Notes: generated by a model not told the origin, from the sequence alone. DNA of 15,242 nucleotides from Kiritimatiellota bacterium (GCA_030590505.1 JAUUYH010000043.1:1-15242), one strand, 5' to 3'; positions 1-15,242 are shown, counted from the stretch's first letter. Numbers and translations: made by a program.

Positions 1-197
1 GCATAACCGTCTCGGTTGTGAATTCGCTCGGAGGCGTCTCGCCTCCAACGAAGTATAAAAGTGAATAAGGAAATCCAAGAAAATGGCAATAAATCAAGCC
101 TTATAGGCGGTTCTTTTTCTTCTCTTTTAGGTTTTTTTAGCTTTTGCTATTTGCGTTGGGACAACGCAAGCTACTAAAGACTCGCAACCTTGGGGGT

Positions 198-1370: not shown

Positions 1371-1387
1371 TTGTTCCTTTTTTTACG

Positions 1388-1460
1388 ACTCTTAATCTTT
1401 ATATTAATTCTACTCTTAATCCTTATTCAGGAAAAATAGAGTAAAATTAAGAGTTTTTTA
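1388..1460 (-). promoter_or_regulatory. ATPase-permease intergenic region: direct 10-mer repeat ACTCTTAATC (1388-1397, 1412-1421) plus inverted copy ATTAAGAGT (1446-1454), followed by T6
   Basis: Read directly from the sequence. On the minus-strand mRNA the arm after the ATPase stop can pair with either of two downstream complementary arms; the second lies about 10 nt from the permease SD. Confidence 0.3.
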
Positions 1461-2972: not shown

Positions 2973-2980
2973 AAAATTTC

Positions 2981-3019
2981 ATCCCACTAAATGGGTTTCA
3001 TTCCCCGTTACTTGGGGCC
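2981..3019 (+). repeat. Copy 1 of a 39-bp two-hairpin repeat (ATCCCACTAAATGGGTTTCATTCCCCGTTACTTGGGGCC)
   Basis: About 82% identical (32 of 39 by hand alignment) to the reverse complement of 7111-7149. Both copies keep hairpin 1 (CCCA(C)-loop-(G)TGGG, with a compensatory change) and hairpin 2 (CCCC-7 nt-GGGG). Lies 9 bp upstream of the ATPase start codon. Confidence 0.6.
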
Positions 3020-3159
3020 TTCCATATATAAATTATTTTGCTAAGTTCTTAATAATAAAAATGAACTACCTCGTAAATTCTGCTCCGTAGTAGTTCATTA
3101 TTAAAAATATATTAATAGAGACTAATTGCTATCAATGAGTCAAATGCATATTTTAAAAG

Positions 3160-3191
3160 ATCCCTCCCGCAAAGCGGGATTAGGGATTTTT
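3160..3191 (-). terminator. Intra-operon stem-loop / attenuator between the substrate-binding and ATPase genes
   Basis: ATCCCTCCCGC-AAA-GCGGGATTAGGGAT imperfect hairpin with a T5 run on the plus strand and CUUUUAAAAUAU on the minus-strand transcript, 10-40 nt after the binding-protein stop. Typical position for attenuators that raise binding-protein:ATPase stoichiometry. Confidence 0.45.
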
Positions 3192-3200
3192 GAAGATGTA

Positions 3201-4205
3201 CTATTCTGCCTGTTTTAGAAGTCTCTTACTTTCCTCTGTATCAAGGTTGTCAGGCGTTAATACACCAGCACCCGTATCAATTCTTACTGGGACCTTCTCT
3301 CCTTTCAGGTGTTTTCCTAATGCACTCACTGCCTGGTATCCCATATTAAACGGGTTTTGAGCAACTAACGCTTGTATTTTTTTACTTTTCAATGCCTGTA
3401 CAGTTGGACGTGATGCGTCGAATCCGACAAATTTAACAGTTCCAGTCAATCCTTTTGATTCAAGAGCTCCGAGCATTCCAACAGTTGTTGGATCGTTTGA
3501 CGCAAAAATACCATCAGCTTCTTTGAGTTTTGCAACCATACTTATTGCACGATTTTTTGCATCTGCAATTGTTCCGCTTCCGGCAGCAAAAGGATCTGCA
3601 ATAATTTCGATATCTTTAAATGCTTTCAATGCTTCAATGCACCCAGCTTCACGATTTTCAGTACTTGAAGAACCTTCCATGTAGCGAAGAATAACAACTT
3701 TACCTTTACCGCCCATAAGTCTTGCAAGTTCTTTTCCGCCTAGTACACCGGCTTCTTTGTTACTTGTTGCTGCAAATGTGATGAAATCTCCCGGTTTAGC
3801 ATCTAAAGCTGAGTCCATTATTACAACAGGAATTCCTGCAGCTTTGGCATCTTGTACCGCACGGATAATTCCAGGTGCTTTTGCATCAAGAGGAGCCAAT
3901 ACAATTCCATCAACCTTCTGAGTTATAAACTGCTTAATGATCTGTATCTGCTGAGCTCTGTCAGATTCTACAAGTCCACCTTTCCATATAATTTCCAGCC
4001 CGTTCTCTTCTCCGGCTTTTAACGCTCCAGCTTCAACACTCCGCCAGAATGGGTGAGTTGTCCCTTTTGGAATAACAGCAATGCGTTTAAGTGCTTTTTT
4101 TCCTTCAGACGCTTTTGGTGCCTGCTCTGAGCAACCTGTTATAAAAACACTACCAACCACTAAAGTTGCTCCAAGCAACATCCCCATTTTTTTGATTCTC
4201 TTCAT
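3201..4205 (-). CDS. Sugar ABC transporter periplasmic substrate-binding lipoprotein (RbsB/LacI-type periplasmic binding fold)
   Basis: The ORF track extends to 4250, but the internal ATG at 4205 (MKRIKKMGMLLGATLVVGSVFITGC...) has a GGAAGGA SD and gives a lipoprotein signal peptide with lipobox ITGC. Body matches type-I periplasmic sugar-binding proteins (RIAVIPKGTTHPFW..., VDGIVLAP). Confidence 0.85.
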   Translation of the reverse strand: MKRIKKMGMLLGATLVVGSVFITGCSEQAPKASEGKKALKRIAVIPKGTTHPFWRSVEAGALKAGEENGLEIIWKGGLVESDRAQQIQIIKQFITQKVDGIVLAPLDAKAPGIIRAVQDAKAAGIPVVIMDSALDAKPGDFITFAATSNKEAGVLGGKELARLMGGKGKVVILRYMEGSSSTENREAGCIEALKAFKDIEIIADPFAAGSGTIADAKNRAISMVAKLKEADGIFASNDPTTVGMLGALESKGLTGTVKFVGFDASRPTVQALKSKKIQALVAQNPFNMGYQAVSALGKHLKGEKVPVRIDTGAGVLTPDNLDTEESKRLLKQAE

Positions 4206-4228
4206 ATAATCCTTCCTTTTTAAAAATA

Positions 4229-4960
4229 CTACTTCAACCGTTTCCACCAATTCTTTCCTATACCAATTCCTGGGACCTTAACCTCTGTTTTTTTATATAT
4301 TGCATCACTATTCCCCCAAATTTCAAGATGCCATGCCAGAACTTTTCTGACCCCAAGATTTTTTAAACTTATTTTAACAGTTTTCCCCATTAAATTATTT
4401 CTTGCTTTTGCATTTTCAAGACTCACCTCTGGCCTACTGAAACCTAGCACTTTAACAAGAATAGATGCAACATCATAGCCTTTGTTTTTAGGTTTTGCTG
4501 CAGTTGGAGTATAATATGAATATATTTGCCGCTCGCCGTCACCTTTCTTCTTGGTGGTAAGTACATATAGATAAAAATATGGAACTTTAAACTTCTTCTC
4601 AGTGCCTGTTTTTTTTGATATTGTATACTCTATCTCAACGGACTCAGCTTTTTTTTTGGAATCAATACCCATATCAGGTACTTTTATATTAAGAATATTA
4701 ACACCATAATCTACATATTTATCTGGAGATGACTGATCTCCCGTATTGATGTCAGTATCATAATAAGCTTTAAACTGCTTTAAATGGTAAGTTTTGCGGG
4801 TTTTGCTTTTTTCAATAACAACTTCACCATCAGATATACTGATAATTTTTACCCCAGAAAGTTTAGTGCCGTCTTTAAAAAAAATTGTGCCTGCAAGCAA
4901 AGAAAAAGAGACAGTAAGTGCTACTGCAAAAACTGTAATAAAAAACAATTTTTTCATCAT
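4229..4960 (-). CDS. Hypothetical secreted Lys-rich protein (signal peptide, no recognisable domain)
   Basis: The ORF track extends to 5038, but ATG at 4960 (MMKKLFFITVFAVALTVSFSLLAG...) has an AAGGAG SD 5 nt upstream and a classic signal peptide. Ends 23 bp upstream of the binding-protein gene on the same strand. Contains A9, A8 and T8 homopolymer tracts. Confidence 0.6.
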   Translation of the reverse strand: MMKKLFFITVFAVALTVSFSLLAGTIFFKDGTKLSGVKIISISDGEVVIEKSKTRKTYHLKQFKAYYDTDINTGDQSSPDKYVDYGVNILNIKVPDMGIDSKKKAESVEIEYTISKKTGTEKKFKVPYFYLYVLTTKKKGDGERQIYSYYTPTAAKPKNKGYDVASILVKVLGFSRPEVSLENAKARNNLMGKTVKISLKNLGVRKVLAWHLEIWGNSDAIYKKTEVKVPGIGIGKNWWKRLK

Positions 4961-5159
4961 AGAACTCCTTTCTTTATAACAAAGCGTGATCAAAATAAAT
5001 TTCGCCTTAATGGGAATAATTTTCCCGATCAAGTTCAATCCATCTCCGCAAAAAACTACAGAACATTGCAGCAGAACTCCATTATGCTTGGTCTTTTACG
5101 AAAAGTAGTAGCCTACAAGCAACCACAGAAGAATAACCCCCACCTTGTAATATAAGGTA

Positions 5160-5315
5160 TTACTCTTCGTGTTTCGTTTTAGGCAAACCTAGTACATTCT
5201 CCCCTTCCTTCCAACGACCATCTTTAGTGAGGATATCAATACGTTCAAAACGCTTCAGTACATTTCTTTTTTTTCGGATCTTTCCGCTTACTTTTAAACT
5301 TGGATGTTGTGACAT
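5160..5315 (-). CDS. Small very basic hypothetical protein (51 aa, MSQHPSLKVSGKIRKKRNVLKRFERIDILTKDGRWKEG...); possibly nucleic-acid or ribosome associated
   Basis: The internal ATG at 5315 is preceded by AGGAAAT 8 nt upstream; the longer ORF start at 5405 has no SD. Net charge strongly positive and no Cys. I cannot assign a family with confidence. Confidence 0.35.
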   Translation of the reverse strand: MSQHPSLKVSGKIRKKRNVLKRFERIDILTKDGRWKEGENVLGLPKTKHEE

Positions 5316-5594
5316 TTTATATTTCCTATTATTTACTATTTTTACTAATTGACTATTATCTCTCTCTTCCAGAACAAACCTGCACCTATAAAAAGAGAGG
5401 AGCATTAATATTAAGCAATTATTCTATCTGTCAAACTCAATATGAAAGTTTTTACTATATTTTTTCACAATGAAAGAGCAAAAATCTAAAAATCTTCCAT
5501 TTTTTCCTTTGTTGCTTTGCTTTCAGCGGGCATTCTGTTATATTCAACAAGATTTTAATCTTGCAATTTTATAGAAAAGGATTTTTAATATATA

Positions 5595-6866
5595 ATGAAT
5601 TTACGTACAGATATGTTTTTAGCTTGGAGATACCTAAAACCACGCCGCAATGCGGTCTCGGTCATTACATGCATATCTGTGATAGGAGTAATCCTCGGGG
5701 TAGCTGTACTTATTGTTGTAATCTCTGTTATGGCAGGGTTTACTGACGAATTCAAAAAGAAATTACTCGATACAACATCACATTTTCAAGTAAAAAACTA
5801 CTACCAAGGCTTTATAGATGACCCTGAAAAGGTAATAGCAACCCTAAAAAAGTGTGATGCAACAGGTGCTCCTATTGTTGAGCGACATGTCCTCGTACAA
5901 CGCGGCGAACAATTTATGCCAAAAATGGTAATTGGAATTGAGCCAAACCTTAAACAAGAGGGAGTGGAACTGACCAAGGCGATGAAATATGGAAAATACT
6001 CTCTCAAACGCGGAGAAATTATAATCAGTACAATCATTGCTACTGAATTATCATTGCGCGTAGGTGAGAAGGTTCTTATGCACTCACCTGCGAAACTCGC
6101 AAAAATGGTTAAGGTAAACAAAGACGGAGAGATGGATCTTAACAAATCACAGATTTACCTGCCGTCTGAGTTTACGGTTTCTGGTATCTACTCATTCGGC
6201 AAGTATGATTTCGATAAGAATATACTCTTTATAAATCTTGATGATGCTGATGAACTATTCGAGCTACCATGGGGGGCGGCAACGGTCATTTACGGTAGAG
6301 TCAAGGATCCCTTTAACATGAGCACAGAGATTGATGCAATACGAAAAAAATTAGTGGAGCAAGGGTATCATGTGCTAACATGGGAACAGATGAATAAAAA
6401 ATTTCTTGGAGTGCTTGAGGTGGAGAAGAATATGCAGTTTTTTCTTCTTATTTTTATAGTTCTCGTTGCAGCATTCAGCATAACAAATACTCTGATAACT
6501 GTTGTTGTTCAGAAAACACGCGAAATCGGGCTTCTAAAAGCACTCGGCGCTCAAAATTTATCAATACTCAATATCTTTCTTTTTCAGGGATTTTTTGTCG
6601 GTGTAACCGGCACCCTATTCGGAACTATGTTTGGAGTAGGCATTATCTACTGGCGTAATTACATACTCTCAGCACTGAGATGGATAACTAGACAGGAACT
6701 CTTTCCTCCTGAATTTTATATATTTAGTCAACTTCCGGCAACAATAAATTCACAGGATCTGATTATTATCGCAATTATATCCATACTTCTCTGTACTCTT
6801 GGAGGTTTAATCCCTGCCTGGCGTGCGGCTAAACTTGATCCAGCAAAGGCCCTGAGATATGAATAA
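5595..6866 (+). CDS. lolE: Lipoprotein-releasing system permease LolC/LolE family (FtsX/MacB-like ABC permease)
   Basis: 423 aa. N-terminal MFLAWRYLKPRRNAVSVITCISVIGVILGVAVLIVVISVMAGF is the canonical LolC/E start. Large periplasmic domain, then three C-terminal TM helices, ending LDPAKALRYE (FtsX C-terminal signature). Confidence 0.85.
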   Translation: MNLRTDMFLAWRYLKPRRNAVSVITCISVIGVILGVAVLIVVISVMAGFTDEFKKKLLDTTSHFQVKNYYQGFIDDPEKVIATLKKCDATGAPIVERHVLVQRGEQFMPKMVIGIEPNLKQEGVELTKAMKYGKYSLKRGEIIISTIIATELSLRVGEKVLMHSPAKLAKMVKVNKDGEMDLNKSQIYLPSEFTVSGIYSFGKYDFDKNILFINLDDADELFELPWGAATVIYGRVKDPFNMSTEIDAIRKKLVEQGYHVLTWEQMNKKFLGVLEVEKNMQFFLLIFIVLVAAFSITNTLITVVVQKTREIGLLKALGAQNLSILNIFLFQGFFVGVTGTLFGTMFGVGIIYWRNYILSALRWITRQELFPPEFYIFSQLPATINSQDLIIIAIISILLCTLGGLIPAWRAAKLDPAKALRYE

Positions 6867-7110
6867 GGATCTGCTGGGTTATTAACCTACTCTCTCAAAT
6901 CGGGAAGGAAAAAAGCCTATTCACCTGTCCCCGAACGTAGTGACGGATTATTATCATTAGTGAATTGTGAGTGCTATAAAAAATTGCAAATGTCGCAAAA
7001 AGAGTTTTGTTATGAAATGACTTTTTTCGTTCAGTCACTACCTAGATGCAAGCATAGGAGGTATATACGCTTTTAATAAAAGCTTGGCAAAATATATTTT
7101 TATATGTTAC

Positions 7111-7149
7111 GCCCCAAGGGACGGGGACGAAAACCCACCTTAGTGGGAT
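7111..7149 (-). repeat. Copy 2 of the 39-bp two-hairpin repeat (inverted relative to copy 1)
   Basis: Plus strand reads GCCCCAAGGGACGGGGACGAAAACCCACCTTAGTGGGAT. Lies 4 bp after the stop of the 7154-7567 gene, in the convergent intergenic region with lolC/E. Confidence 0.6.
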
Positions 7150-7153
7150 TCAA

Positions 7154-7567
7154 CTATCTATTAACAAAGACCTTGCGTCCAAATCTAATATTAATAAAAC
7201 AGTCTGCTCCAGCACGAACCTTTACCGATTCGACAGTATAGGGCATATATTCTGGTGCCTTGAAAGTAACTTTATATGTTCCAGGTGGTAAAAATTTACT
7301 CATATAAACATAAAGCTGCCCTGGGGATTTATAATTATAAATAATTTTCCCTCGGGAAACACTATAAAATTCAATAGTCAGATTTTTAGGTGGATTTTTA
7401 AGATCTCCGACAATCCTACCAGCTTTATTCCATGAAGAATTTGAGTGTTCTATATATGTTATTTTGTCATGACTCATCTCTTTATGCTTTGTAACACCCC
7501 ACGTTGCTAGGGGAAGATACAATACAGCAATAATTATAGAGACAAAAATAACAGATTTTCTATTCAT
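7154..7567 (-). CDS. Hypothetical secreted protein with carboxypeptidase-regulatory-like / prealbumin-like beta domain
   Basis: 137 aa. Signal peptide MNRKSVIFVSIIIAVLYLPLATWG. C-terminal PPGTYKVTFKAPEYMPYTVESVKVRAG resembles CarboxypepD_reg domains. AAGAAGG SD upstream of ATG 7567. Confidence 0.55.
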   Translation of the reverse strand: MNRKSVIFVSIIIAVLYLPLATWGVTKHKEMSHDKITYIEHSNSSWNKAGRIVGDLKNPPKNLTIEFYSVSRGKIIYNYKSPGQLYVYMSKFLPPGTYKVTFKAPEYMPYTVESVKVRAGADCFINIRFGRKVFVNR

Positions 7568-7614
7568 AATAAAACCTTCTTTGTTTTTAAATAAATTAGT
7601 AGTACAGTAACAAC

Positions 7615-7643
7615 TTGAATTTATATCGCAATACGGGTATATA
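7615..7643 (+). promoter_or_regulatory. Putative sigma70-type promoter for the HhH-cbiET transcript (TTGAAT-17 nt-TATATA)
   Basis: -35 TTGAAT at 7615-7620, 17-nt spacer, -10 TATATA at 7638-7643, about 37 nt before ATG 7680. Lies in the divergent intergenic region and overlaps a plausible opposite-strand promoter for the 7154-7567 gene. Confidence 0.4.
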
Positions 7644-7679
7644 CAACATGAAAATAAGAAAAAAGTAGAAGATTAATAA

Positions 7680-7967
7680 ATGAATAATAAGACGATAATT
7701 GAAAAAATATACAAACTGCAGTTGGCAATACGCTTAAAAAATGCGATGATTGCGAATGCACTGGAGAAGGCTACAATCCCTCTTCTGGAATACGAAAAAC
7801 CACTAGAAGGAGCGACAAAAGCTGAGCTTATGGCGATTAAAGGTATCGGAACAAGCAGTGTGGAACAGATATTAAAGGTTATAGGTGGAGATAATATACA
7901 TAATATAGTTAAAGAGGCGCCTGCACCAAAAAAAGGGAGAATGGGTGAGATGAAATGGAAATGGTAA
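7680..7967 (+). CDS. Small helix-hairpin-helix (HhH) protein, hypothetical
   Basis: 95 aa. ELMAIKGIGTSSVEQIL is a canonical HhH (hydrophobic-x-GIG) motif as in ComEA and Pol X 8-kDa domains. Stop at 7965-7967 overlaps the cbiET start (7955) by 13 nt; GGGAGA SD for cbiET lies inside its 3' end. Confidence 0.5.
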   Translation: MNNKTIIEKIYKLQLAIRLKNAMIANALEKATIPLLEYEKPLEGATKAELMAIKGIGTSSVEQILKVIGGDNIHNIVKEAPAPKKGRMGEMKWKW

Positions 7968-9205
7968 ATAATAAAAAGAACATAATCATTTTAAGTTGCG
8001 GCACGGGAGTTGACTCACTGCCTGCGAACTTCGCAGATATTGTTAGTCGCTGCACAACCCTTGTCGGAGGCAAGCGCTTACTAGACCTTTTTCCTAACTA
8101 TACTGGCGAAAAAATTGTTATAGACAAGCATATAAAAGAGACACTTGCGAAACTCGCAGAAAACCCAAAAGACATCGTAATTCTAGCATCAGGTGATGCC
8201 CTGTTTCATGGTATTGCAAAAACTGTTTTACAGATTATACCAAAGGAACAAGTTAAAATAATCCCAAACATTACAGCGGCACAGGCACTTTGTGCGAAAA
8301 TCGCACTTCCCTGGGACAATGCCGCGCTGCTTTCTCTTCACGGAAAAAATCCCGACGATATAAACTGGCCGCAAATTTCACGAAAACTACCTGTAATAAT
8401 TTACGGAGATCATAGGTGTAATTCTGCGAATATCGCTAAAAAGCTGATACAAGCAAATCCAAAAAGTGCAGATGAGATTGGCGGCTACAATGCAGCCATA
8501 GGCATAAATCTTGGAATGGATGATGAAGAAATTCTAATAGGGACATTGAAAGAGATGTCAGAGAGGTCTTGCACGGGGCTCTCGGTACTTGCGATATTCG
8601 CAAACACTTCACGAGATCTGGAGTCTCTGCAGGAGGAGAGTTCTGCAATATTTGGACGTGTAGATTCAGAATTCTCACACCATAATAATATGATAACACA
8701 TAGTGAAATAAGAGCAGTTGTACTATCAAAACTCCGATTGAAGCCAGGTATCATGTGGGATCTGGGAGCTGGAAGTGGTTCGGTCGGAATTGAGGCCGCA
8801 CTACTTCAGCCTGCACTGGAGGTTTATTCAGTAGAGAAAGATATTGGAAGAGTTGATGATATAAAAAATAATATGAAAAAATTTGATAGCAATAATGTAA
8901 ATATAATTTGTGGAAATGCACTGACTCAAATCCAGAATCTACCTGATCCAGATACTGTTTTCATAGGTGGTGGCGGAGATGATGTAGCAGAGATCCTGAA
9001 AAACAGCTATGCTCATTTGAAACGAGGCGGGAGAATTATAGCAACTGCAGTACTACTGGAAACGCGCACGGCACTGGCAAACACAATGAAAGAACAGTGC
9101 TCCGAAGTTATTTCCATTTCTGTGAGCCGGTCAAAGAAACTCGGTAATTCCCGTATAATGAAAGCCGAGAACAATATAGAAATTTACGTATATATAAAAG
9201 AGTGA
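7955..9205 (+). CDS. cobL: Precorrin-6Y / cobalt-precorrin-6B C5,15-methyltransferase (decarboxylating), fused CbiE-CbiT (CobL)
   Basis: 416 aa. N-terminal tetrapyrrole-methylase fold (GTGVDSLP...LVGGKRLLDLF...ILASGDALFHGI). C-terminal class-I SAM methyltransferase with GIMWDLGAGSGSVGIEAA (the CbiT part). Confidence 0.8.
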   Translation: MEMVNNKKNIIILSCGTGVDSLPANFADIVSRCTTLVGGKRLLDLFPNYTGEKIVIDKHIKETLAKLAENPKDIVILASGDALFHGIAKTVLQIIPKEQVKIIPNITAAQALCAKIALPWDNAALLSLHGKNPDDINWPQISRKLPVIIYGDHRCNSANIAKKLIQANPKSADEIGGYNAAIGINLGMDDEEILIGTLKEMSERSCTGLSVLAIFANTSRDLESLQEESSAIFGRVDSEFSHHNNMITHSEIRAVVLSKLRLKPGIMWDLGAGSGSVGIEAALLQPALEVYSVEKDIGRVDDIKNNMKKFDSNNVNIICGNALTQIQNLPDPDTVFIGGGGDDVAEILKNSYAHLKRGGRIIATAVLLETRTALANTMKEQCSEVISISVSRSKKLGNSRIMKAENNIEIYVYIKE

Positions 9206-9341
9206 ATATAATACCTAGATTGTGCAAACATAAGTGTGTTAGTTGCGTAAGTGCTTTGTTTTCAGATGCGGACAAATGACTTATGCAAATGGCGTGCTTA
9301 GGACTGCACGATTTAGGTAATAACATAAAAAAGGTATTTTA

Positions 9342-10133
9342 ATGAAAAATAAAGTAATATTTGCGGGTGCTGGGCCCGGGGCACCAGATCTGATAACACT
9401 GCGATGCTGTGAAGCACTACAAAATGCTGATATGATTCTCTATGCAGGCTCCCTAGTCAATCCAGAGATACTGAAACATGCAAACAGTAAGTGCGAACTG
9501 ATAGATAGCGCTAATCTTAATCTTGAAGAGATAATCTCAACACTTCAACGCGGAATTGACGAAGAAAAAAATGTAGTGCGTCTTCATACTGGTGATCCGA
9601 CAATTTACGGAGCAATAACTGAACAGATGAATGAGCTAGATCAATGTAATATTGAATACGAAGTAATCCCCGGAGTAAGCTCTCTTTTTGCTGCAGCGGC
9701 TGCACTAAAAACCGAACTAACTCTTCCTGGAATATCCCAGTCAATAATCATCACGCGTCGTGCTGGACGGACCCCTGTACCAGATGGACAGAACATTGCG
9801 GACTTCGCAAAACATAATGCCACAATGGGAATATTTTTAAGTATATCTGACATTGAAGGACTGGTTGATGATTTGATATTCGGGGGATATGCCCCGACAA
9901 CTGCAGTCGGAATAGTCTATAGGGCATCATGGGAGAATGAAAAAATTCTACGGGGAACTCTTGAAGATATCGCAGAGAAAGTGCGAACTTCGCAAATAAC
10001 CCGTCAGGCGATGATAATTGTGGGCAACGCCATATCAAAAACTGGCGACAAATCTCTCCTCTATGATGCGAACTTCGCACATGGATACCGAGCAAGTGCA
10101 AAAAAAATAACTGAGGCGACAAGAAACCGGTGA
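9342..10133 (+). CDS. cbiF: Precorrin-4 / cobalt-precorrin-4 C11-methyltransferase
   Basis: 263 aa. VIFAGAGPGAPDLITLRC...ADMILYAGSLV, RLHTGDPTIYGA and VIPGVSSLFAAAAAL are hallmark CbiF/CobM motifs. Confidence 0.85.
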   Translation: MKNKVIFAGAGPGAPDLITLRCCEALQNADMILYAGSLVNPEILKHANSKCELIDSANLNLEEIISTLQRGIDEEKNVVRLHTGDPTIYGAITEQMNELDQCNIEYEVIPGVSSLFAAAAALKTELTLPGISQSIIITRRAGRTPVPDGQNIADFAKHNATMGIFLSISDIEGLVDDLIFGGYAPTTAVGIVYRASWENEKILRGTLEDIAEKVRTSQITRQAMIIVGNAISKTGDKSLLYDANFAHGYRASAKKITEATRNR

Positions 10134-10290
10134 TCCGTGAAGAAACCAGAGTGCTCTGCTTCGCCGAAGGCGGAATAATCATACTGCTTTCTTGTGCTGA
10201 CTTGCCCACCGAAGCTGAAAGAGTGTAGGTGGGAAGCACAACTTATGATAGGCCAGGGCAACACCTGGGTGATTGTTTGTTACATCACGA
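10134..10290 (+). other. GC-rich structured block immediately 3' of cbiF: three tandem stem-loops (CGCC-GAA-GGCG; CCCACC-18 nt-GGTGGG; CCAGG-7 nt-CCTGG) plus GTGAT-11 nt-ATCAC
   Basis: GC-rich hairpins read directly from the sequence in an otherwise AT-rich region. No U-tract follows any of them. Two overlapping minus-strand ORFs from the track are judged spurious. Confidence 0.3.
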
Positions 10291-10372
10291 AAAAGAGAAT
10301 GTAATATTGAAATAATTGTAAGATTAAGACAATGAGTAGGACGAAGAGTATGATTAGAGAGAAAATATAAAA

Positions 10373-11086
10373 ATGAGAGAACTTATACCTGAAGATTGGC
10401 GGAAGATATTAGAAGACGAGCTCAACTCACCGGAGTTTAAAAACCTTGAGCATTTTCTGGAGAATGAGTGGAGCAGTCAAACCATTTTTCCACCTAAGGA
10501 GAAGATATTTACTGCAATGCAACTGACTCCCTTCTCTAAGGTAAAAGTTCTTCTTTTGGGACAGGATCCATATCATGACGACAATCAGGCGCACGGACTT
10601 GCATTCTCTGTACAGAATGGTGTAAAAATACCACCATCTCTTCGCAATATCTACAAAGAGCTAGAGTCGGACTTAAAAATTTCTCCTGCCCGCAATGGCA
10701 ATCTAAAAACATGGGCCGAGCAGGGAGTGCTTCTTATAAATACCGTCCTGACTGTTCGTGCGCACAGTGCAAATTCCCACGCAGGACAAGGCTGGGAATG
10801 GTTTACAGATGCAGTACTAAAACATCTAAACCAAAAGGAAGATACAGTGATATTTCTTCTCTGGGGTGCTAATGCTGCAAAAAAAATCCCCCTGATTGAT
10901 AGTGAGAAGCATATAATCATTACATCACCACACCCCTCCCCGCTCTCCGCATATAGAGGTTTTTTTGGGTCAAAACCATTTTCTAAGATCAATAAGGTAC
11001 TGGAAGAGCATAAAATTAGACCTATAAACTGGAAACTTCCTGACTATGATAATTACGAAGATATGCCGCTTTTTGAAGAAGTGTAA
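10373..11086 (+). CDS. ung: Uracil-DNA glycosylase (family 1)
   Basis: 237 aa. GQDPYHDDNQAHGLAFSV (catalytic water-activating loop) and HPSPLSA (Leu-intercalation loop) are diagnostic UNG motifs. Confidence 0.92.
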   Translation: MRELIPEDWRKILEDELNSPEFKNLEHFLENEWSSQTIFPPKEKIFTAMQLTPFSKVKVLLLGQDPYHDDNQAHGLAFSVQNGVKIPPSLRNIYKELESDLKISPARNGNLKTWAEQGVLLINTVLTVRAHSANSHAGQGWEWFTDAVLKHLNQKEDTVIFLLWGANAAKKIPLIDSEKHIIITSPHPSPLSAYRGFFGSKPFSKINKVLEEHKIRPINWKLPDYDNYEDMPLFEEV

Positions 11087-11106
11087 TAATTTTAACAATT
11101 TACACT

Positions 11107-11135
11107 TTGCATATTATGCAATATGATGATAGATT
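11107..11135 (+). promoter_or_regulatory. Putative nfeD-flotillin promoter; its -35 is embedded in the perfect 15-bp palindrome TTGCATAtTATGCAA, and a second palindrome TGCGAATTTCGCA lies downstream at 11165-11177
   Basis: TTGCAT (11107-11112), 17-nt spacer, TAGATT (11130-11135). The 15-bp palindrome at 11107-11121 is perfect. The exact 13-bp palindrome at 11165-11177 sits between the putative transcription start and the GGGGAG SD, an operator-like position. Confidence 0.35.
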
Positions 11136-11214
11136 GCTTACTATTAAAAAATAACAAGAGAATTTGCGAATTTCGCATCTATCAAAATAAAGAAGAGATT
11201 AAGGGGAGATAACA

Positions 11215-11811
11215 ATGGCTGAATTTATTAATTCTATGAAAGACTTTCTTTTCGGAGATTACAAAGTATATTTTTTCTTTGCTGTCTTAGGTTCTGTTAT
11301 TGCACTAATTCAACTTGTTCTCTCATTCTTCATCGGTGGTGGCGATTTTGATGTTGATGTTGATGGAGACGGAGATATTGCATTCGGAGAACATACTGAT
11401 TCTGGATTTGGCGATTTCCATTTTATATCATTCAGGTCTATTGTTGCGTTCTTCGCATTTTTCGGTTGGGGTGGAGTAATTTCATACGAACATGGGATCG
11501 CGGCTCTCGGGGCATTCTTTATCGCTCTAGGCTGTGGATTGGCTATGATGCTCTTTACTGCTGCGGCACTCTATTTGATGATGAAAATGCAACATAGCGG
11601 AAATATCCTACCAGCAGATTACATTGGTTGCCGCGGCTCTGTCTATCTTACAATTCCAGGCGGACGCTCTGAGATAGGAAAAGTAACGGCAATAGTTAAA
11701 GGAACATCACAAGAAATTGTAGTTGTTGCAGATGAAAGGATTGAACGTGGTGCATCTGTAAAAATAATGGAGACCGTTGGTAGTAATCGCTTCCTCGTAG
11801 AAAAGAGTTAA
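11215..11811 (+). CDS. NfeD-like membrane protein (YuaF/YqiJ family, partner of SPFH/flotillin proteins)
   Basis: 198 aa. N-terminal TM helices, acidic DVDVDGDGD stretch, further TM helices, then a C-terminal OB-fold-like beta domain (GKVTAIVKGTSQEIVVVADERIERGASVKI) typical of short NfeD proteins. GGGGAG SD. Immediately upstream of a flotillin gene. Confidence 0.7.
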   Translation: MAEFINSMKDFLFGDYKVYFFFAVLGSVIALIQLVLSFFIGGGDFDVDVDGDGDIAFGEHTDSGFGDFHFISFRSIVAFFAFFGWGGVISYEHGIAALGAFFIALGCGLAMMLFTAAALYLMMKMQHSGNILPADYIGCRGSVYLTIPGGRSEIGKVTAIVKGTSQEIVVVADERIERGASVKIMETVGSNRFLVEKS

Positions 11812-11909
11812 TCACACGAGCAAATTTAAGTTTATGATCATTGTATTCGAGTAGTAAATTTGAGAATATATAACAGAGGCAATGCCTCACAAAAAAAAGG
11901 AGAATTGCT

Positions 11910-13391
11910 ATGCCAGTAATAGCAGGAATTGGAGGAATGAGTTCAACCATTGCAGGAGTAGTAACGCTAGTTATTATTATCTTCGGACTACTTGCATTTT
12001 TTGCAACAAGGTATAAAAAATGCCCGTCTGACCGTGTCATGGTTATCTACGGTAAAACTAAAGGAGCACAAGCATCAAGGTGTATCCATGGTGGAGCAGC
12101 ATTTATATGGCCTGTTATCCAGGATTACGGATTTCTATCACTGCGCCCGATGCAGATCGAAGTAGCACTTGATAATGCACTCTGTTTGCAGAATATCCGT
12201 ATCAGTGTACCATCTGTATTTACAGTGGGTGTTAGTACTGAAGAAGCAATTATGACAAATGCGGCGAATCGCTTGTTCGGCCAGCATCCTGATGCAGTTG
12301 CGGAACTCGCAAAAGATATTATTTTCGGACAGCTCCGTCTTATCATTGCATCTATGAGTATCGAACAGATCAATACTGACCGTGAGATTTTCCTACGTAA
12401 TGTAGAGAGCAATGTTGCAGAAGAGTTAAACAAAATCGGTCTTATGCTTCTTAACGTTAATATTACTGATATTACAGATGAGAGTGGATATATCGATGCG
12501 ATCGGACGTAAGGCAGCTGCAGAAGCGATAAACCAAGCGGCAATTGACGTTTCTGAAGAAGAGCGAAAAGGTAAATCAGGTGAAGCTGAAGCTAAAAAGA
12601 GTCAGCGTATTGCTGTGGCAAATGCTGATGCAATCGCCCAAAAAGGTGAAGCAGAAGCTGACAGTCAGCGCCGTATCGCCGTAAAACGAGCTGAATCTGC
12701 AGCGGTTGACGGAGAAAATATCTCAGGTATTGAGATTGCAAACTCCAATGCAAAACGTTCAGAAGCTGAAGCTGAAGCATACAGAAAAGCAGAAGCTGCA
12801 AAACGTATAGCGGAAGCATCAATCGAAAAAACACATTTCGATGCAGAAAAAGAAGCACAGATGGCCCGTGCATTAATGGAAAAAGAGCGCTTGAATGCCG
12901 AAACTATTGTTTCAGCTCAAATAACAAAAGAGCAGATTGAGATTGCGGCTGCAGCGGAAGCTGGAAAACGCCGTATAGAAGCACAAGGTCAGGCAGATGC
13001 GATATTCGCAACTCTCGATGCCGAAGCCCGTGGTAACTTTGAAATACTAAAAGCAAAAGGTACTGGTTTCAATGAAATCATCAAGGCGTGCGGCAATGAT
13101 GCTGATGCAGCGTCCAAAATGCTTATGATTGAGAAACTCGAAGAGATCGTTGCTCTTCAGACTGAAGCAATCAAAAATATCAAGATTGACAAAATCACAG
13201 TCTGGGATGGAAACGGCGGAACAGATGGTAAAACATCTACAGCCAATTTTCTCAGCGGTATGATGCAAAGTCTGCCACCACTACACGACGTAGCGCAGAT
13301 GGCTGGAGTAGAACTTCCTGAGTATCTCGGAAAGGTCAAAGCCAATGAGCCAGCAAAAGCAGCTATACCGGCTCCAAAAAAACAGGCGTAA
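11910..13391 (+). CDS. floT: Flotillin-like SPFH/band-7 protein (FloT/YqiK family) with C-terminal EA-repeat coiled coil
   Basis: 493 aa. N-terminal membrane hairpin, SPFH domain (RVMVIYGKTKG...FIWPVIQDYGFLSLRPMQIEV), then long Ala/Glu-rich heptad region (AEAEA repeats) typical of bacterial flotillins. AAGGAG SD. Confidence 0.85.
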   Translation: MPVIAGIGGMSSTIAGVVTLVIIIFGLLAFFATRYKKCPSDRVMVIYGKTKGAQASRCIHGGAAFIWPVIQDYGFLSLRPMQIEVALDNALCLQNIRISVPSVFTVGVSTEEAIMTNAANRLFGQHPDAVAELAKDIIFGQLRLIIASMSIEQINTDREIFLRNVESNVAEELNKIGLMLLNVNITDITDESGYIDAIGRKAAAEAINQAAIDVSEEERKGKSGEAEAKKSQRIAVANADAIAQKGEAEADSQRRIAVKRAESAAVDGENISGIEIANSNAKRSEAEAEAYRKAEAAKRIAEASIEKTHFDAEKEAQMARALMEKERLNAETIVSAQITKEQIEIAAAAEAGKRRIEAQGQADAIFATLDAEARGNFEILKAKGTGFNEIIKACGNDADAASKMLMIEKLEEIVALQTEAIKNIKIDKITVWDGNGGTDGKTSTANFLSGMMQSLPPLHDVAQMAGVELPEYLGKVKANEPAKAAIPAPKKQA

Positions 13392-13409
13392 AAGAGCCAT
13401 AAACATACA

Positions 13410-13446
13410 ATCCCTGTACGGAAAACTCCGTATGGGGATTTTTTGT
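13410..13446 (+). terminator. Rho-independent terminator after the flotillin gene
   Basis: ATCCCTGTACGGA-AAAC-TCCGTATGGGGAT stem-loop (about 12 bp with GU pairs), followed by TTTTTTGTGTGT, starting 19 nt after the stop codon. Confidence 0.7.
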
Positions 13447-13466
13447 GTGTATCGCACATATCTCTA

Positions 13467-13494
13467 TTGCGAAGTACGCAAATTGTAATATATT
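13467..13494 (+). promoter_or_regulatory. Putative argB promoter (TTGCGA-16 nt-TATATT) with the TGCGAAGTACGCA near-palindrome overlapping the -35
   Basis: -35 TTGCGA at 13467-13472, -10 TATATT at 13489-13494, about 55 nt upstream of the AGGAGA SD and ATG 13551. The palindrome-family site at 13468-13480 overlaps the -35, an operator-like placement. Confidence 0.4.
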
Positions 13495-13550
13495 TAGATA
13501 AAGAAGAAAAATTCAGAATTGTTCACTGAAAAATAGGAGAATTATTAAAA

Positions 13551-14429
13551 ATGCAAAAAGAGATAGATAAAGCAGCTGTACTTATTGAAGCACTGCCATA
13601 TATTCAAAAATTCAGAAATGAAATTGTTGTTATAAAATTCGGCGGCAGTGCAATGGAGGACAAGGATCTTATCAAAAAAACAATGAGAGATATTGTTTTT
13701 ATGGAGTGCGTAGGTATGAAACCTGTTGTCGTGCATGGTGGCGGCAAGGCTATTAGTGCAAAACTTCATCAACTGAATATTCCAACAAAATTCATTAATG
13801 GATTGCGCTATACCTGTAAAAAAACAATAAAAGTTGTCGATGAAGTTCTTCATAATGTTGTAAACACATATTTGCTCAATGCTGTTCAAGACGCTGGCGG
13901 TAAGGGTCGCCAACTGTCAGGGAAAAAGTTTCTAACTGCTAAAAAAGCAACAACACAATGCAGTGACTCAGGAAAAGAACTCGATCTCGGTTTTGTAGGA
14001 AGTATCGTTGACGTTAACACAAAACAGATTTTTGAGGCCCTAGAGGAAGATGTTCTTCCTATTATCCCTCCACTTGCTATCGATAATAAAGGAAACACTT
14101 ACAATATCAATGCCGACATTGCTGCATGTCAGATTGCAAAAGCTCTCAAGGCACGTAAACTTGTATTCCTTAGTGATGTTCCTGGGATTTTAAGAGATCG
14201 AGATGATGAAAATTCTGTAATATCAACCATAACGATTGATGAAGTCGACGAACTAATAAATCGAAAGATCATAAGCGGAGGCATGGCTCCTAAGATTAAA
14301 AGTGCAGAAGACGCACTACTTGCAGGAACCAACAAAGTGCATATTATTGATGGACGCATCAAACATTCACTGATGCTTGAGATCTTTACCGACAGAGGAA
14401 TTGGTACGGAAATAGTAAAACAAAGATGA
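13551..14429 (+). CDS. argB: Acetylglutamate kinase
   Basis: 292 aa. VVIKFGGSAM, KPVVVHGGG, NINADIAACQIAKALKARKLVFLSDVPGIL, GGMAPKI and HIIDGRIKHSLMLEIFTDRGIGTEI match ArgB (amino-acid kinase family) motifs. Confidence 0.88.
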   Translation: MQKEIDKAAVLIEALPYIQKFRNEIVVIKFGGSAMEDKDLIKKTMRDIVFMECVGMKPVVVHGGGKAISAKLHQLNIPTKFINGLRYTCKKTIKVVDEVLHNVVNTYLLNAVQDAGGKGRQLSGKKFLTAKKATTQCSDSGKELDLGFVGSIVDVNTKQIFEALEEDVLPIIPPLAIDNKGNTYNINADIAACQIAKALKARKLVFLSDVPGILRDRDDENSVISTITIDEVDELINRKIISGGMAPKIKSAEDALLAGTNKVHIIDGRIKHSLMLEIFTDRGIGTEIVKQR

Positions 14430-15142
14430 AAACACCCCTACAGAAGATAGAACATGGGTACGTTGTATCCGATCTGCACATGTGTACCAAGTGGACATCC
14501 GTTGAAGAATATATGTGCGATATTCGCAAAGCTGCCGCGAATGCGGATTTTTTTGTCTTCAATGGTGATATTTTCGACTTCAGATGGAGTACCTTAGGGT
14601 CAGCGGCAGCAACTGCGAAATTCGCAATAAAGTGGTTTAGTGATATATGTGATGACTTTCCGAACTGCACATTCATCTACATTCTCGGAAATCATGATGC
14701 ACATAAAAATATACTTAAACCTATTGCTCAATTCGCAAAGAAACAGGATAATTTCATCTGGCATAGTTCTTTTATCAAAATCGGATCATCACTATTTATG
14801 CACGGTGATCTGATATTCTCTATGCGTAACAAATCCCCCTTTGAAAGAAAAAAATATAAACATAGAAATCCAGTTCGCTCCATTATCCAAAAAACATATC
14901 ATCGTGTAATTAAAATGGGGGCACATCGCCTTATTTCTAAAGTACACGCAAAAGAGCGTTGCGCAAAATATGTAATGCAGGTTCTTGAAAAAGATCATAG
15001 CCACCAATTAAAAGATATTACCGACATCTACATCGGCCATACGCACGTCGGTTTTTCAGACTACAACTACAACAACTACACATTCCACAACAGCGGCTCC
15101 GCAATCCATGACCTACAATGCAATCTAATGAAAGTAAGGTAG
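14426..15142 (+). CDS. Calcineurin-like metallophosphoesterase, LpxH-like (possible UDP-2,3-diacylglucosamine pyrophosphatase)
   Basis: 238 aa. VVSDLHMC, FVFNGDIFDFRW, ILGNHD, MHGD and IGHTH are spaced as in LpxH (FIADLHL / GDLFEAWIG / GNRD / MHGD / HGHTH). Start ATGA overlaps the argB stop by 4 nt. The specific LpxH/LpxG function is inferred, not verified. Confidence 0.55.
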   Translation: MKTPLQKIEHGYVVSDLHMCTKWTSVEEYMCDIRKAAANADFFVFNGDIFDFRWSTLGSAAATAKFAIKWFSDICDDFPNCTFIYILGNHDAHKNILKPIAQFAKKQDNFIWHSSFIKIGSSLFMHGDLIFSMRNKSPFERKKYKHRNPVRSIIQKTYHRVIKMGAHRLISKVHAKERCAKYVMQVLEKDHSHQLKDITDIYIGHTHVGFSDYNYNNYTFHNSGSAIHDLQCNLMKVR

Positions 15143-15242
15143 GCCCTGCTCAGAAAAAGATAACTTACTCCTGCGTCTCAATCGTTATAGTAGCCATTCC
15201 TATTTTATTATCAATGACTAGATCGTTGACACCATGCACCCA

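Follow-up and report, generated by a model that had tools for sequence, protein, structure and literature searches.

A palindromic DNA word with a free central base is very probably under selection at the DNA level throughout the phylum Lentisphaerota, and it is kept even at the expense of protein sequence. In the contig examined here (the window, that is, the whole stretch of 15,242 nucleotides, from a genome of 39% GC), this word of 13-15 bases, (Y)TGCGAA-N-TTCGCA(R), is about 100-fold over-represented relative to chance. Specifically, an exact pattern count finds 15 sites of the form TGCG-N5-CGCA, against 0.09 expected in dinucleotide shuffles of the window (maximum 1, n=200) and 0.15 under an order-3 Markov background trained on the window itself (maximum 2, n=300), while shuffling synonymous codons gene by gene yields 0.61 sites against the 13 observed in coding sequence (maximum 4, n=2000). 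A sequence-only reading of this DNA had put the chance expectation at well under one and had proposed Markov and codon-aware backgrounds as a check; all three backgrounds agree with it and leave the excess unexplained, the effect being stronger than first claimed. The enrichment is confined to the complete dyad, as half-sites outside full sites occur in the window about as often as expected (TGCGAA 3 versus 3.3, TTCGCA 2 versus 3.1). The sites, together with one decayed copy and their counterparts in related loci (L002 to L005), are as follows, with no strand assigned to any of them:

6089-6101, exact site TGCGAAACTCGCA, MacB/FtsX-like permease gene (5595-6866), read P-A-K-L-A-K; L002 has an identical copy at the orthologous position
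8023-8035, perfect palindrome TGCGAACTTCGCA, cbiET, A-N-F-A; kept in L002, L003 and L004 with a different centre (AACTT or AGGTT)
8146-8158, exact site TGCGAAACTCGCA, cbiET, A-K-L-A; kept in L002, L003 and L004, and in L005 with one mismatch
8293-8305, exact site TGCGAAAATCGCA, cbiET, A-K-I-A; kept in L002, L003 and L004 with differing centres
8425-8437, TGCGAATATCGCT, a decayed copy whose single mismatch is A13 to T, cbiET, A-N-I-A; exact TGCGAATATCGCA at this position in L002, L003 and L004
8590-8602, exact site TGCGATATTCGCA, cbiET, A-I-F-A; exact only in L002, one mismatch in L003, missing from L004 and L005, therefore a lineage-specific gain or loss
9797-9809, exact site TGCGGACTTCGCA, cbiF, A-D-F-A; unchanged in L004 and one mismatch away in L005
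9982-9994, perfect palindrome TGCGAACTTCGCA, cbiF, in another frame (V-R-T-S-Q); exact in both L004 and L005
10067-10079, perfect palindrome TGCGAACTTCGCA, cbiF, A-N-F-A; exact counterpart in L004 with centre ACATT
11165-11177, perfect palindrome TGCGAATTTCGCA, in the intergenic spacer that separates ung (10373-11086) from the ORF at 11215-11811
11445-11457, exact site TGCGTTCTTCGCA, ORF 11215-11811, A-F-F-A
12299-12311, exact site TGCGGAACTCGCA, flotillin-like gene (11910-13391), A-E-L-A
12998-13010, exact site TGCGATATTCGCA, flotillin-like gene, A-I-F-A
13468-13480, exact site TGCGAAGTACGCA, in intergenic DNA upstream of argB (13551-14429), with the least palindromic centre
14516-14528, exact site TGCGATATTCGCA, metallophosphoesterase gene (14426-15142), in the third frame (C-D-I-R)
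14614-14626, perfect palindrome TGCGAAATTCGCA, metallophosphoesterase gene, A-K-F-A

The earlier count of 13 sites had overlooked those at 11445 and 12998 and had placed at 14526 a site that begins at 14516. Its five perfect copies of TGCGAA-N-TTCGCA (8023, 9982, 10067, 11165 and 14614) were correctly positioned, TGCGATATTCGCA occurs three times (8590, 12998 and 14516) rather than twice, and of the eight sites assigned to cbiET and cbiF seven are exact, the eighth (8425) being the one-mismatch copy.

That orthologous cbiET and cbiF genes in related genomes might carry the sites had been suggested as a further check, and they do so at matching positions in L002, L003 and L004, and partly in L005. 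The relatives of the window share 58-72% identity in CbiET, and their sites stand at orthologous positions with variable centres. Sites thus stay in place although the synonymous positions around them are saturated: identity at four-fold synonymous bases is 0.92-1.00 in motif codons versus 0.33-0.50 outside them in L002, L003 and L004, and 0.67 versus 0.30 in L005. This positional conservation is compatible with selection as well as with a repair or uptake drive that restores the same near-sites, and does not discriminate between the two.

The word has also shaped the proteins, having installed Ala-x-x-Ala where homologues outside the clade carry other residues. Among CbiET homologues with no more than 50% identity, Ala-x-x-Ala is found in 0 of 109 at the positions of the 8023 and 8590 sites and in about 5% at that of 8293; among close relatives it is present in 7-8 of 8 at the first four cbiET sites and in 3 of 8 at 8590. 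Coding sites mostly share a single frame, xxT GCG xxx xxx GCA (read Ala-x-x-Ala): 11 of 13 do so in the window, 35 of 39 in the window clade and 226 of 298 in other Lentisphaerota, the remainder lying in other frames. The sequence-only reading had stressed that the same word is read in several frames, which is true of the off-frame copies at 9982 and 14516 and of the intergenic ones at 11165 and 13468, but most coding copies share a single frame; its multi-frame argument against protein motifs leans on only two of the 13 coding sites. The idea that protein sequence and codon usage produce the word as a side effect, with Ala-[KN]-[FLI]-Ala helices that happen to be written in favoured codons, can draw on this common frame, but it is refuted by the synonymous shuffles, by the conservation of synonymous bases inside the word where others are saturated and by the missing Ala-x-x-Ala in distant homologues. 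In addition, GCG is, as had been noted, a minor alanine codon in the window, and spacers as well as two further frames hold copies, so that we give this idea practically no weight, and the earlier claim that protein motifs are an insufficient explanation is borne out.

Beyond the window, a scan of 185,579 species genomes with a two-site pattern returned 100 loci, of which 72, from 22 assemblies with a GC content of 25-63%, belong to Lentisphaerota. In these 72 loci, compared as fragments of 8 kb or less each, 174 non-ascertained sites occur in 506 kb versus 8.3 expected by composition (21x), while the 28 other loci hold 16 versus 5.6 expected. The consensus of 165 non-ascertained sites, Y-TGCG-AA-N-TT-CGCA-R, is symmetric with a fully degenerate centre, and a variant, TGCGG-N3-CCGCA, occurs in GC-rich genomes of some lineages. 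Site density differs more than 5-fold between related lineages (0.08 per kb in L107, about 1 per kb in the window), and by extrapolation about 0.1-1.5 copies per kb would give each genome some hundreds to thousands of them. The central base is free, whereas the outer eight are nearly all-or-none; the window clade has 38 exact sites and 12 one-mismatch copies, the latter distributed across 24 possible variants, and 7 of these 12 decayed copies are changes of CpG to TpG or CpA at positions 4 and 10. We found no prior report of this word in the literature.

The left part of the window is different. As had been observed, no site occurs in 1-6088, where about 8.5 would be expected by length at the right-hand density of 1.5 sites per kb. 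However, this gap is less extreme than it appears because the left-hand proteins offer few Ala-x-x-Ala positions (11 versus 44 on the right), and on that basis its probability is about 0.02, so that the non-uniformity stands in a milder form. As had been proposed, the two halves may differ in evolutionary origin, on which the evidence is mixed. CpG is lower on the left (0.66 versus about 0.9). The contig is not chimeric at the junction, given that the best matches of the left-hand ABC ATPase are Lentisphaeria and that the left/right junction is syntenic with a relative. In L114, the closest relative, the left-hand operon lies in a different neighbourhood and is also without sites; a whole 5.5-kb operon lacking the word is not obviously predicted by a uniform genome-wide process.

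The symmetry of the word fits a dimeric DNA-binding protein, as had been proposed, and resembles the dyads typical of helix-turn-helix operators; two sites lie upstream of genes, and that at 13468 overlaps a weak promoter-like match (TTGCGA-16-TATATT), on the -35-like hexamer. It is nonetheless improbable that a global transcriptional regulator or silencer uses the sites as operators, with functional promoter sites and secondary intragenic copies. Intergenic DNA, for which an enrichment had been suggested as a check, is not enriched (2 of 15 sites, 13%, in the window, where non-coding DNA makes up 13.7%; 20 of 318, 6%, in other Lentisphaerota, with about 12% non-coding DNA), promoter-like matches in 11050-13600, which spans both intergenic sites, show no excess (8 versus 6.3 in shuffles), densities reach about one site per kb, the window clade lacks a graded tail of weaker sites, and it is the intragenic copies that show between-species conservation. 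The earlier proposal of operators at 11165 and 13468 defining a regulon is thus already largely contradicted. We assign a similarly small chance to a hairpin in RNA or single-stranded DNA (a stem of 5-6 bp and a loop of 3 nt) that would serve as a signal for an RNase or RNA-binding protein, or as a structure in replication or DNA transfer. The 17-mers do fold at -4.5 to -8 kcal/mol, well under shuffles, and flanking positions 0 and 14 are complementary in 95 cases versus 76 under independence, but the latter excess may stem from GC differences between genomes. Moreover, the stem shows invariant bases instead of covariation, the consensus keeps A and T at positions 6 and 8 despite their would-be location in the loop, and sites are found equally outside transcribed contexts and in both gene orientations. 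Pairing covariation is absent at positions 5/9 and 6/8, which favours two independent half-sites on duplex DNA.

Two further explanations carry more weight, though both are unlikely. The stronger is that an abundant nucleoid-associated or chromosome-organising dimer binds the sites for folding or segregation, unrelated to uptake. The dyad symmetry with enrichment of the full dyad only, the genome-wide spread regardless of coding status and the purifying selection on individual sites would all suit it, and the same structural role has been proposed for HIP1 by Xu et al. (PMC5861425). Against it, the word carries, by a rough estimate, about 20 bits versus about 11 needed for a few thousand sites, an excess typical of drive-type words and not of binding-site populations. 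Known nucleoid proteins tolerate degenerate sites, whereas here exact copies far outnumber one-mismatch copies. Slightly less probable is a methylation-linked repair ratchet, in which an orphan methyltransferase recognises all or part of the dyad and adjacent mismatches are repaired towards the word, leaving functionless copies; Elhai's model for HIP1 reportedly invokes such methylation-linked, sequence-specific, VSP-like repair. Such a ratchet would account for copies that originate as substitutions in existing near-sites and for their restoration in the same places, and the all-or-none outer bases are more enzyme-like than regulator-like. The layout of 4+4 bases with an N5 spacer resembles, by analogy, the symmetric bipartite sites of Type I and Type IIB enzymes, although the AA/TT preference falls in what would be the non-specific spacer. 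The predominance of CpG changes among decayed copies is in line with it too, but decay from GC to AT is expected anyway at 39% GC. A phage replication module (L111) also bears the word four times, in three cases in the Ala-x-x-Ala frame; a ratchet should, however, affect all resident DNA, and the 5.5-kb operon is without sites in both the window and L114. We know of no methyltransferase or uptake-receptor site as long as 12-14 specified positions.

We therefore prefer, at somewhat better than even confidence, a genomic word of the HIP1 or uptake-sequence (USS) type that is read by a dimeric protein. An uptake-signal-like or recombination-associated word was among the candidates first put forward, and this class is favoured by the phylum-wide occurrence in genes and spacers, the conserved positions, the frame preference and the effects on proteins. 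Y-TGCG-A-A-N-T-T-CGCA-R would be maintained throughout Lentisphaerota genomes, in any frame and in spacers, and a homodimeric sequence-specific protein would read it on duplex DNA, one half-site (TTCGCAR) per subunit, acting across the genome and not gene by gene. Copies would accrue via point substitution where the cost to the protein is least, mostly in the frame xxT-GCG-xxx-xxx-GCA, and would then be retained through selection or copy-biased drive. By analogy, the most likely function is a tag of self-DNA for uptake, recombination or repair, a tentative assignment that falls short of even confidence. The asymmetry of USS and DUS, set beside a perfect dyad, counts against an uptake tag, and so do the length of the word, the variable density between related lineages and the site-free operon.

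Of the systems already described, HIP1 (Highly Iterated Palindrome 1, GCGATCGC) of cyanobacteria is 15-300-fold over-represented, shows conservation both within ORFs and between them, and enhances natural transformation (PMC5861425; bioRxiv 10.1101/2024.09.10.611283; 10.64898/2026.06.24.733823). HIP1 and the alternate HIPs share with our word the character of short GC-rich palindromes that are hyper-abundant phylum-wide in coding and non-coding DNA, as well as spread by substitution and not insertion and conservation between orthologues above the synonymous background (PMC5861425, PMC4390886, 10.64898/2026.06.24.733823); lineage variants, here TGCGG-N3-CCGCA, are a further likeness. However, HIP1 is an uninterrupted 8-mer containing the sites of two orphan methyltransferases (GATC and CGATCG), whereas the present word, from a phylum of the PVC group, is an interrupted dyad of 13-15 bp that specifies 12-14 positions and leaves the central base free.

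Uptake sequences show frame bias, peptide enrichment and a preference for poorly conserved residues, and are lacking in newly acquired genes (PMC2817400). The USS of Pasteurellaceae (including Haemophilus) and the DUS of Neisseriaceae (including Neisseria) are like our word in their density of about one per kb, the dominance of exact copies over near-copies, the strong frame preference with an enriched encoded peptide at poorly conserved residues, the retention among related species and, possibly, the absence from recently acquired genes (PMC2817400, PMC1939737). They differ in being asymmetric 9-12-mers with a pilin-type receptor and demonstrably competent hosts, while our word is a perfect dyad. 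Two inverted half-sites of 6-7 bp about one helical turn apart also recall the operators of helix-turn-helix or winged-helix dimers and iterons, such as those of phage O-like initiators. Indeed, the same dyad forms local arrays with an iteron-like architecture in contigs unrelated to Lentisphaerota (5 copies with a 41-bp period in L018, 4 copies within 100 bp in L098) and occurs within or adjoining O-like replication initiator genes in the viral loci L110 and L111. Such arrays are, however, tight clusters of few copies in non-Lentisphaerota or phage DNA, whereas in Lentisphaerota single copies are scattered through genes and show no association with promoters or origins. Finally, Chi and KOPS/AIMS are likewise over-represented short words with a genome-wide role in DNA transactions, but they are asymmetric, oriented relative to replication and read directionally, whereas a palindrome carries no orientation and its half-sites are not enriched.

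The interrupted palindrome TGCG-N5-CGCA (perfect form TGCGAA-N-TTCGCA, also written YTGCGAANTTCGCAR) is found by exact search in 15 copies in the window, all within 6089-14626. Thirteen of them lie within genes and two are intergenic (11165 and 13468). The sequence-only reading had counted 13 copies, overlooking those at 11445 and 12998 and placing at 14526 the one at 14516; the five perfect palindromes that it reported are the five found here. Dinucleotide-preserving shuffles of the window predict 0.09 sites, and a third-order Markov model fitted to the window predicts 0.15. The claimed over-representation also holds against a codon-aware null, since shuffling the synonymous codons of each gene yields 0.61 sites (at most 4 in 2000 shuffles) as compared to the 13 coding sites observed. 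Permitting one mismatch adds just eight further copies, and half-sites outside complete sites occur at chance level in the window (TGCGAA 3 vs 3.3 expected, TTCGCA 2 vs 3.1). Therefore, the enriched unit is the complete dyad, roughly 100-fold. With about one site per kb, within genes and spacers, the word behaves as a highly iterated palindrome that is over-represented against every composition-aware background tried. The window is an entire metagenome-assembled contig from NCBI (15,242 bp), and its genes are arranged as follows.

198-4250, minus strand: sugar ABC transporter operon
4229-5038: gene of no assigned function, between the ABC operon and the small basic protein gene
5160-5405, minus strand: PVC-type small basic protein TIGR04137 (Chlamydiae/Verrucomicrobia type)
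Plus strand, from left to right: MacB/FtsX permease, cbiET, cbiF, ung
10373-11086, plus strand: ung, family-1 uracil-DNA glycosylase
Right end, plus strand, in this order: ORF of no assigned function, flotillin-like gene, argB, metallophosphoesterase

The relative positions of the sites within these genes are evenly spread, and 11 of the 13 coding sites are read in a single frame, xxT GCG xxx xxx GCA, which encodes Ala-x-x-Ala. In the right-side proteins of the window this peptide pattern reaches 1.87 times its expectation. The other two frames are represented by site 9982 (V-R-T-S-Q) and site 14516 (C-D-I-R), and the argument that multiple reading frames speak against a protein motif is correct, yet carried by these two sites alone.

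Some of the reading frames and features in this region deserve a separate description. The true start of TIGR04137 is probably at residue 31 of the listed ORF 5160-5405, because 94% identity to its counterpart in L002 (one of the relatives' contigs reached via CbiET) holds over the last 51 residues. A 95-aa ORF (7680-7967, plus strand), which overlaps the start of cbiET by 13 bases, is found at the same position with 82-85% identity in L002 and in two more such contigs, L003 and L004, and is apparently a small protein coupled to cbiET; the window copy has no Pfam or NCBIfam match, and in the precomputed Pfam table the L004 copy has a weak HHH_8 hit only. Upstream of the cbiET cluster, on the opposite strand, there is a 137-aa ORF (7154-7567, minus strand), conserved as L003:147-560 and L004:5567-5980, whose sole match is a sub-threshold one to CarboxypepD_reg; the word is absent from all three orthologues. 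A strong terminator-like hairpin (13409-13440, plus strand; 14 pairs and then a T run) directly follows the flotillin-like gene and is immediately upstream of the intergenic site 13468. The neighbouring ung was considered as a gene possibly linked to the word, and proved to be an ordinary family-1 uracil-DNA glycosylase with nothing connecting the two.

The sites in cbiET, cbiF and macB are conserved between orthologues beyond neutral expectation. CbiET homologues at 71, 67, 58 and 49% identity led to the contigs L003, L002, L004 and L005, all four of which contain the word (5 sites in 2.3 kb, 6 in 6.1 kb, 12 in 9.0 kb and 4 in 19.5 kb, respectively). In codon alignments, sites of the three genes occupy matching positions in the window, L002, L003 and L004, and the five central bases vary among species at orthologous sites (AACTT vs AGGTT; AAAAT vs AGACT or AAGAT). 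More specifically, four-fold degenerate positions outside the word in conserved codon families are 33-50% identical in L002, L003 and L004, which is near saturation, whereas those in codons touched by the word are 92-100% identical; for L005 the figures are 30% and 67%. Site 8425, a one-mismatch copy in the window, is exact in L002, L003 and L004, and some sites of the alignments are lineage-specific, and there is therefore turnover of sites. The word aligns to the orthologues free of indels, and these have either the word or a substituted form at the same position.

The imprint on the encoded proteins was followed in an alignment of 117 further CbiET homologues, namely 8 close relatives and 109 from outside the window's immediate clade. 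Ala-x-x-Ala is present in 7-8 of the 8 close relatives at the first four sites and in 3 of 8 at 8590, while outside the immediate clade it is found in none of the 109 at 8023 and at 8590 and in about 5% at 8293. Therefore, the DNA word has been written into proteins at poorly conserved positions, and not the reverse.

Beyond these contigs, the word is a property of the phylum Lentisphaerota, which accounts for well under 1% of species. One genome per species (185,579 species) was scanned for a perfect site and any TGCG-N5-CGCA separated by 60-90 bases. Among the matches listed (at least 100 loci), 72 of 100 come from 22 Lentisphaerota assemblies with a GC content of 25-63%, which are named Victivallales, Victivallis, Victivallaceae, Lentisphaera, Lentisphaerales, Lentisphaeria or Lentisphaerae; across these 22 assemblies, the abundance of the word is common to Victivallales and Lentisphaerales and is not a feature of one genome only. 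The loci themselves were selected for two sites, and these two were subtracted before counting, after which the Lentisphaerota loci listed still contain 174 sites over 506 kb, as compared to 8.3 predicted by base composition, and the other 28 loci listed contain 16 over 211 kb (5.6 expected). Counted in this way on loci selected for two sites, the density of additional sites in other Lentisphaerota assemblies is 0.1-0.9 per kb; all pieces examined are 21.5 kb or shorter, and genome-wide totals of hundreds to thousands of copies are an extrapolation. The listed matches from outside the phylum are chance pairs in GC-rich genomes or tight local arrays. The best named CbiET homologues are from Victivallales or Lentisphaerae MAGs and those of the ABC ATPase from Lentisphaeria MAGs, which places the source organism in this phylum.

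The consensus of 165 non-ascertained Lentisphaerota sites is symmetric, Y-TGCG-A-A-N-T-T-CGCA-R, an interrupted word of 13-15 nt. A prevails at position 5 (75% of the sites, with G in another 20%) and at position 6 (72%), positions 9 and 8 are their mirror image, and the word is flanked by T/C to its left and A/G to its right. All four bases occur at the centre in almost equal numbers (44 A, 38 C, 42 G, 41 T). The window clade has 38 exact sites vs 12 one-mismatch copies, all 24 possible variants pooled, and 7 of these 12 are changes of CpG to TpG or CpA at positions 4 and 10. In other Lentisphaerota, the Ala-x-x-Ala frame is used by 226 of 298 coding sites and the other two frames by 72; across the Lentisphaerota sets its share of the coding sites is 76-90%. 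Two GC-rich Lentisphaeria loci (57-58% GC), L106 (sites 1143, 5645 and 7894) and L108 (1676, 3606 and 4017), mostly have TGCGG-N3-CCGCA and not TGCGA-N3-TCGCA, which suggests a lineage variant of the word, comparable to the alternate HIPs of cyanobacteria.

At the right-side density, about 8.5 sites would be expected in the 5.5 kb of the left side, where none is found. The left side also differs in having 11 Ala-x-x-Ala positions in its proteins vs 44 on the right, a CpG observed/expected ratio of 0.66 (1-5500) vs 0.88-0.93 (5501-15242), and no CGCG vs 11. A chimeric contig was rejected as the cause, the junction at 5.0-5.6 kb being syntenic with L002, where the 4229-5038 gene and the small basic protein gene both have orthologues adjoining macB. 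An origin of the left side outside the phylum likewise lacks support: the ABC ATPase shares 74-83% identity with proteins of Lentisphaeria, from which its best named homologues also come (74-78%). In the closest relative (L114, 83% identity, from the same sample as L002 and L003), the ABC operon has a different gene neighbourhood and is also site-free, and more distant orthologues bear sites in the ATPase gene (one in L107 and two in L115). A relatively recent move or transfer of the ABC operon within the class is plausible and, if real, would parallel the case of uptake sequences, which newly acquired genes lack (PMC2817400). The differences in CpG and in the neighbourhood in L114 speak for the suggestion that the two halves may differ in origin, but the contig is not chimeric at the junction and the ATPase is Lentisphaeria-like.

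The same dyad can also be found elsewhere as local arrays, which are a different phenomenon from the dispersed single copies of Lentisphaerota. In a Chitinophagaceae MAG (CANCPA010000044.1, L018:1343-1519), five (Y)TGCGAA-N-TTCGCAA copies with an exact 41-bp period lie directly upstream of a 322-aa ORF with no family match; this looks like an iteron or operator array with the same dyad in an unrelated phylum. In an Obscuribacterales MAG (DATNQY010000388.1, L098:6231-6326), four TTGCG-N5-CGCAA dyads are clustered in a 100-bp stretch that has genes for a recG-like helicase and a small GTPase on its two sides. The two-site pattern was found in 5 of 2.9 million viral contigs, which is about chance level, and phages were set aside as an explanation. 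One viral contig (L111, IMG/VR) is a phage replication module, encoding an O-like initiator as well as a DnaB helicase, and bears four identical TGCGAAATTCGCA copies (924, 6798, 6875 and 7623), three of them in the Ala-x-x-Ala frame; in another (L110:7135-7282, IMG/VR), an ORF with weak similarity to a replication initiator contains three dyads in a stretch of 150 bp. These multi-copy viral cases could be origin iterons near O-like initiators or, alternatively, the host word carried in a Lentisphaerota phage. As leads to a reader protein, the ORFs adjoining the arrays of L018, L098 and L110 could not be placed in any informative family.

Several explanations for the word can be weighed against this evidence. 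Gene-specific operators of a transcription-factor regulon are highly improbable, as the sites are not concentrated in promoter regions (2 of 15, or 13%, fall in the 13.7% of the window that is non-coding, and 20 of 318 in the approximately 12% that is non-coding in other Lentisphaerota) and the exact copies outnumber the one-mismatch copies instead of forming a graded population. Indeed, nothing sets apart the sites at 11165 and 13468, previously proposed to be real operators: promoter-like matches around the intergenic copies of the window are no commoner than in shuffles. The synonymous shuffles, the synonymous-site conservation and the absence of Ala-x-x-Ala from wider homologues rule out a protein or codon artefact, leaving a coding origin with next to no probability. 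The word does fold, forming a hairpin of 5-6 bp with a 3-nt loop (-4.5 to -8 kcal/mol), but an RNA or single-strand structure is hardly credible, given that there is no pairing covariation at positions 5/9 and 6/8 and that its features do not fit such a structure. Complementarity of the flanks (0/14) is somewhat above independence (95 vs 76), an excess that GC-content differences between genomes can produce. The symmetric consensus and the lack of covariation suggest that a putative symmetric dimer reads two independent half-sites in double-stranded DNA.

The word is thus dyad-symmetric, born by substitution, kept at single positions while neighbouring synonymous sites are saturated, and indifferent to coding status. 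A homodimeric protein would read it genome-wide, and the word would act as a self-DNA tag in uptake, recombination or repair, a reading that we favour tentatively and at less than an even chance. A nucleoid-structuring site and a methylation-linked repair ratchet rank behind it, and we consider either of them unlikely. By a rough estimate, the word carries about 20 bits, approximately double the requirement for a few thousand sites in a genome of a few megabases; an excess of this kind is typical of drive-type words instead of regulator or nucleoid-protein sites, and it is the reason for preferring the self-DNA tag. In its widest form, which is possible though somewhat doubtful, the proposal is a phylum-level DNA watermark: a 15-bp interrupted palindrome with a dedicated dimeric reader, which would mark self-DNA for uptake, recombination or chromosome handling and in whose favour proteins would have been rewritten (Ala-x-x-Ala). 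If true, a HIP/USS-type word would be known for the first time from beyond Cyanobacteria, Pasteurellaceae and Neisseriaceae, and isolation of the reader protein would be unusually easy owing to the long dyad. In the literature outside subscription journals we found no mention of the word, or of any hyper-abundant motif in Lentisphaerota, and nothing relevant on a Lentisphaerae palindrome, uptake sequence or methylome, or on a Victivallis methylome; an earlier report is possible.

To our knowledge, hyper-abundant genomic words exist in very few lineages (HIP1 in cyanobacteria; USS/DUS in two proteobacterial families). What HIP1 does has remained a matter of debate for 30 years, and we know of no successful identification of its reader by pull-down or DAP-seq. 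An independent case in the PVC group is a second system for asking what such words do, and a pull-down or DAP-seq with the 15-mer should reveal the reader directly, since the dyad is long and nearly invariant. In addition, the word can serve as a short marker by which Lentisphaerota contigs are recognised in metagenomes and foreign DNA is spotted in Lentisphaerota genomes. Should it promote uptake or recombination, it might also be of use in rendering these poorly tractable bacteria transformable.

Other classes of repeated DNA words differ from it in several respects. Chi and KOPS are asymmetric, oriented words with strand skew, whereas this one is a palindrome whose half-sites alone are at chance; REP and MITE elements are intergenic insertions of 20-40+ nt, whereas this one is 13-15 nt long and mostly intragenic; and restriction-modification targets are usually avoided by the host genome, whereas this one is over-represented about 100-fold. 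An Aca2 operator, which has the half-sites of the word in the opposite order, is unrelated.

HIP1 exceeds its expected frequency 15-300-fold and shows conservation in ORFs as well as between them (PMC5861425). Orphan methyltransferases have been connected with it (PMC4390886), it enhances natural transformation (bioRxiv 10.1101/2024.09.10.611283), and one proposal regards it as an uptake watermark at the level of the phylum (bioRxiv 10.64898/2026.06.24.733823). The word is similar in being a many-fold over-represented palindrome of a phylum-level lineage with conservation of orthologous sites. However, it is not HIP1 in the strict sense, as sequence, architecture and phylum differ: HIP1 is GCGATCGC or a related uninterrupted octamer of Cyanobacteria, and the word is an interrupted 13-15-mer of the PVC-group Lentisphaerota. 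In Pasteurellaceae and Neisseriaceae, uptake sequences are biased in reading frame, go along with a doubled frequency of the encoded peptides and are located at poorly conserved residues (PMC2817400). With these the word shares near-identical copies at about one per kb in coding and non-coding DNA, a preferred frame and an enriched encoded peptide at poorly conserved residues, and the earlier suggestion of an uptake-signal-like word has gained in that the signatures of the class (phylum spread, positional conservation, frame preference and protein imprint) are all present. Nevertheless, it is not a USS or DUS, which are asymmetric and non-palindromic whereas its consensus is symmetric. Judged by these signatures, the word behaves like both HIP1 and USS/DUS, with another sequence, length and architecture.
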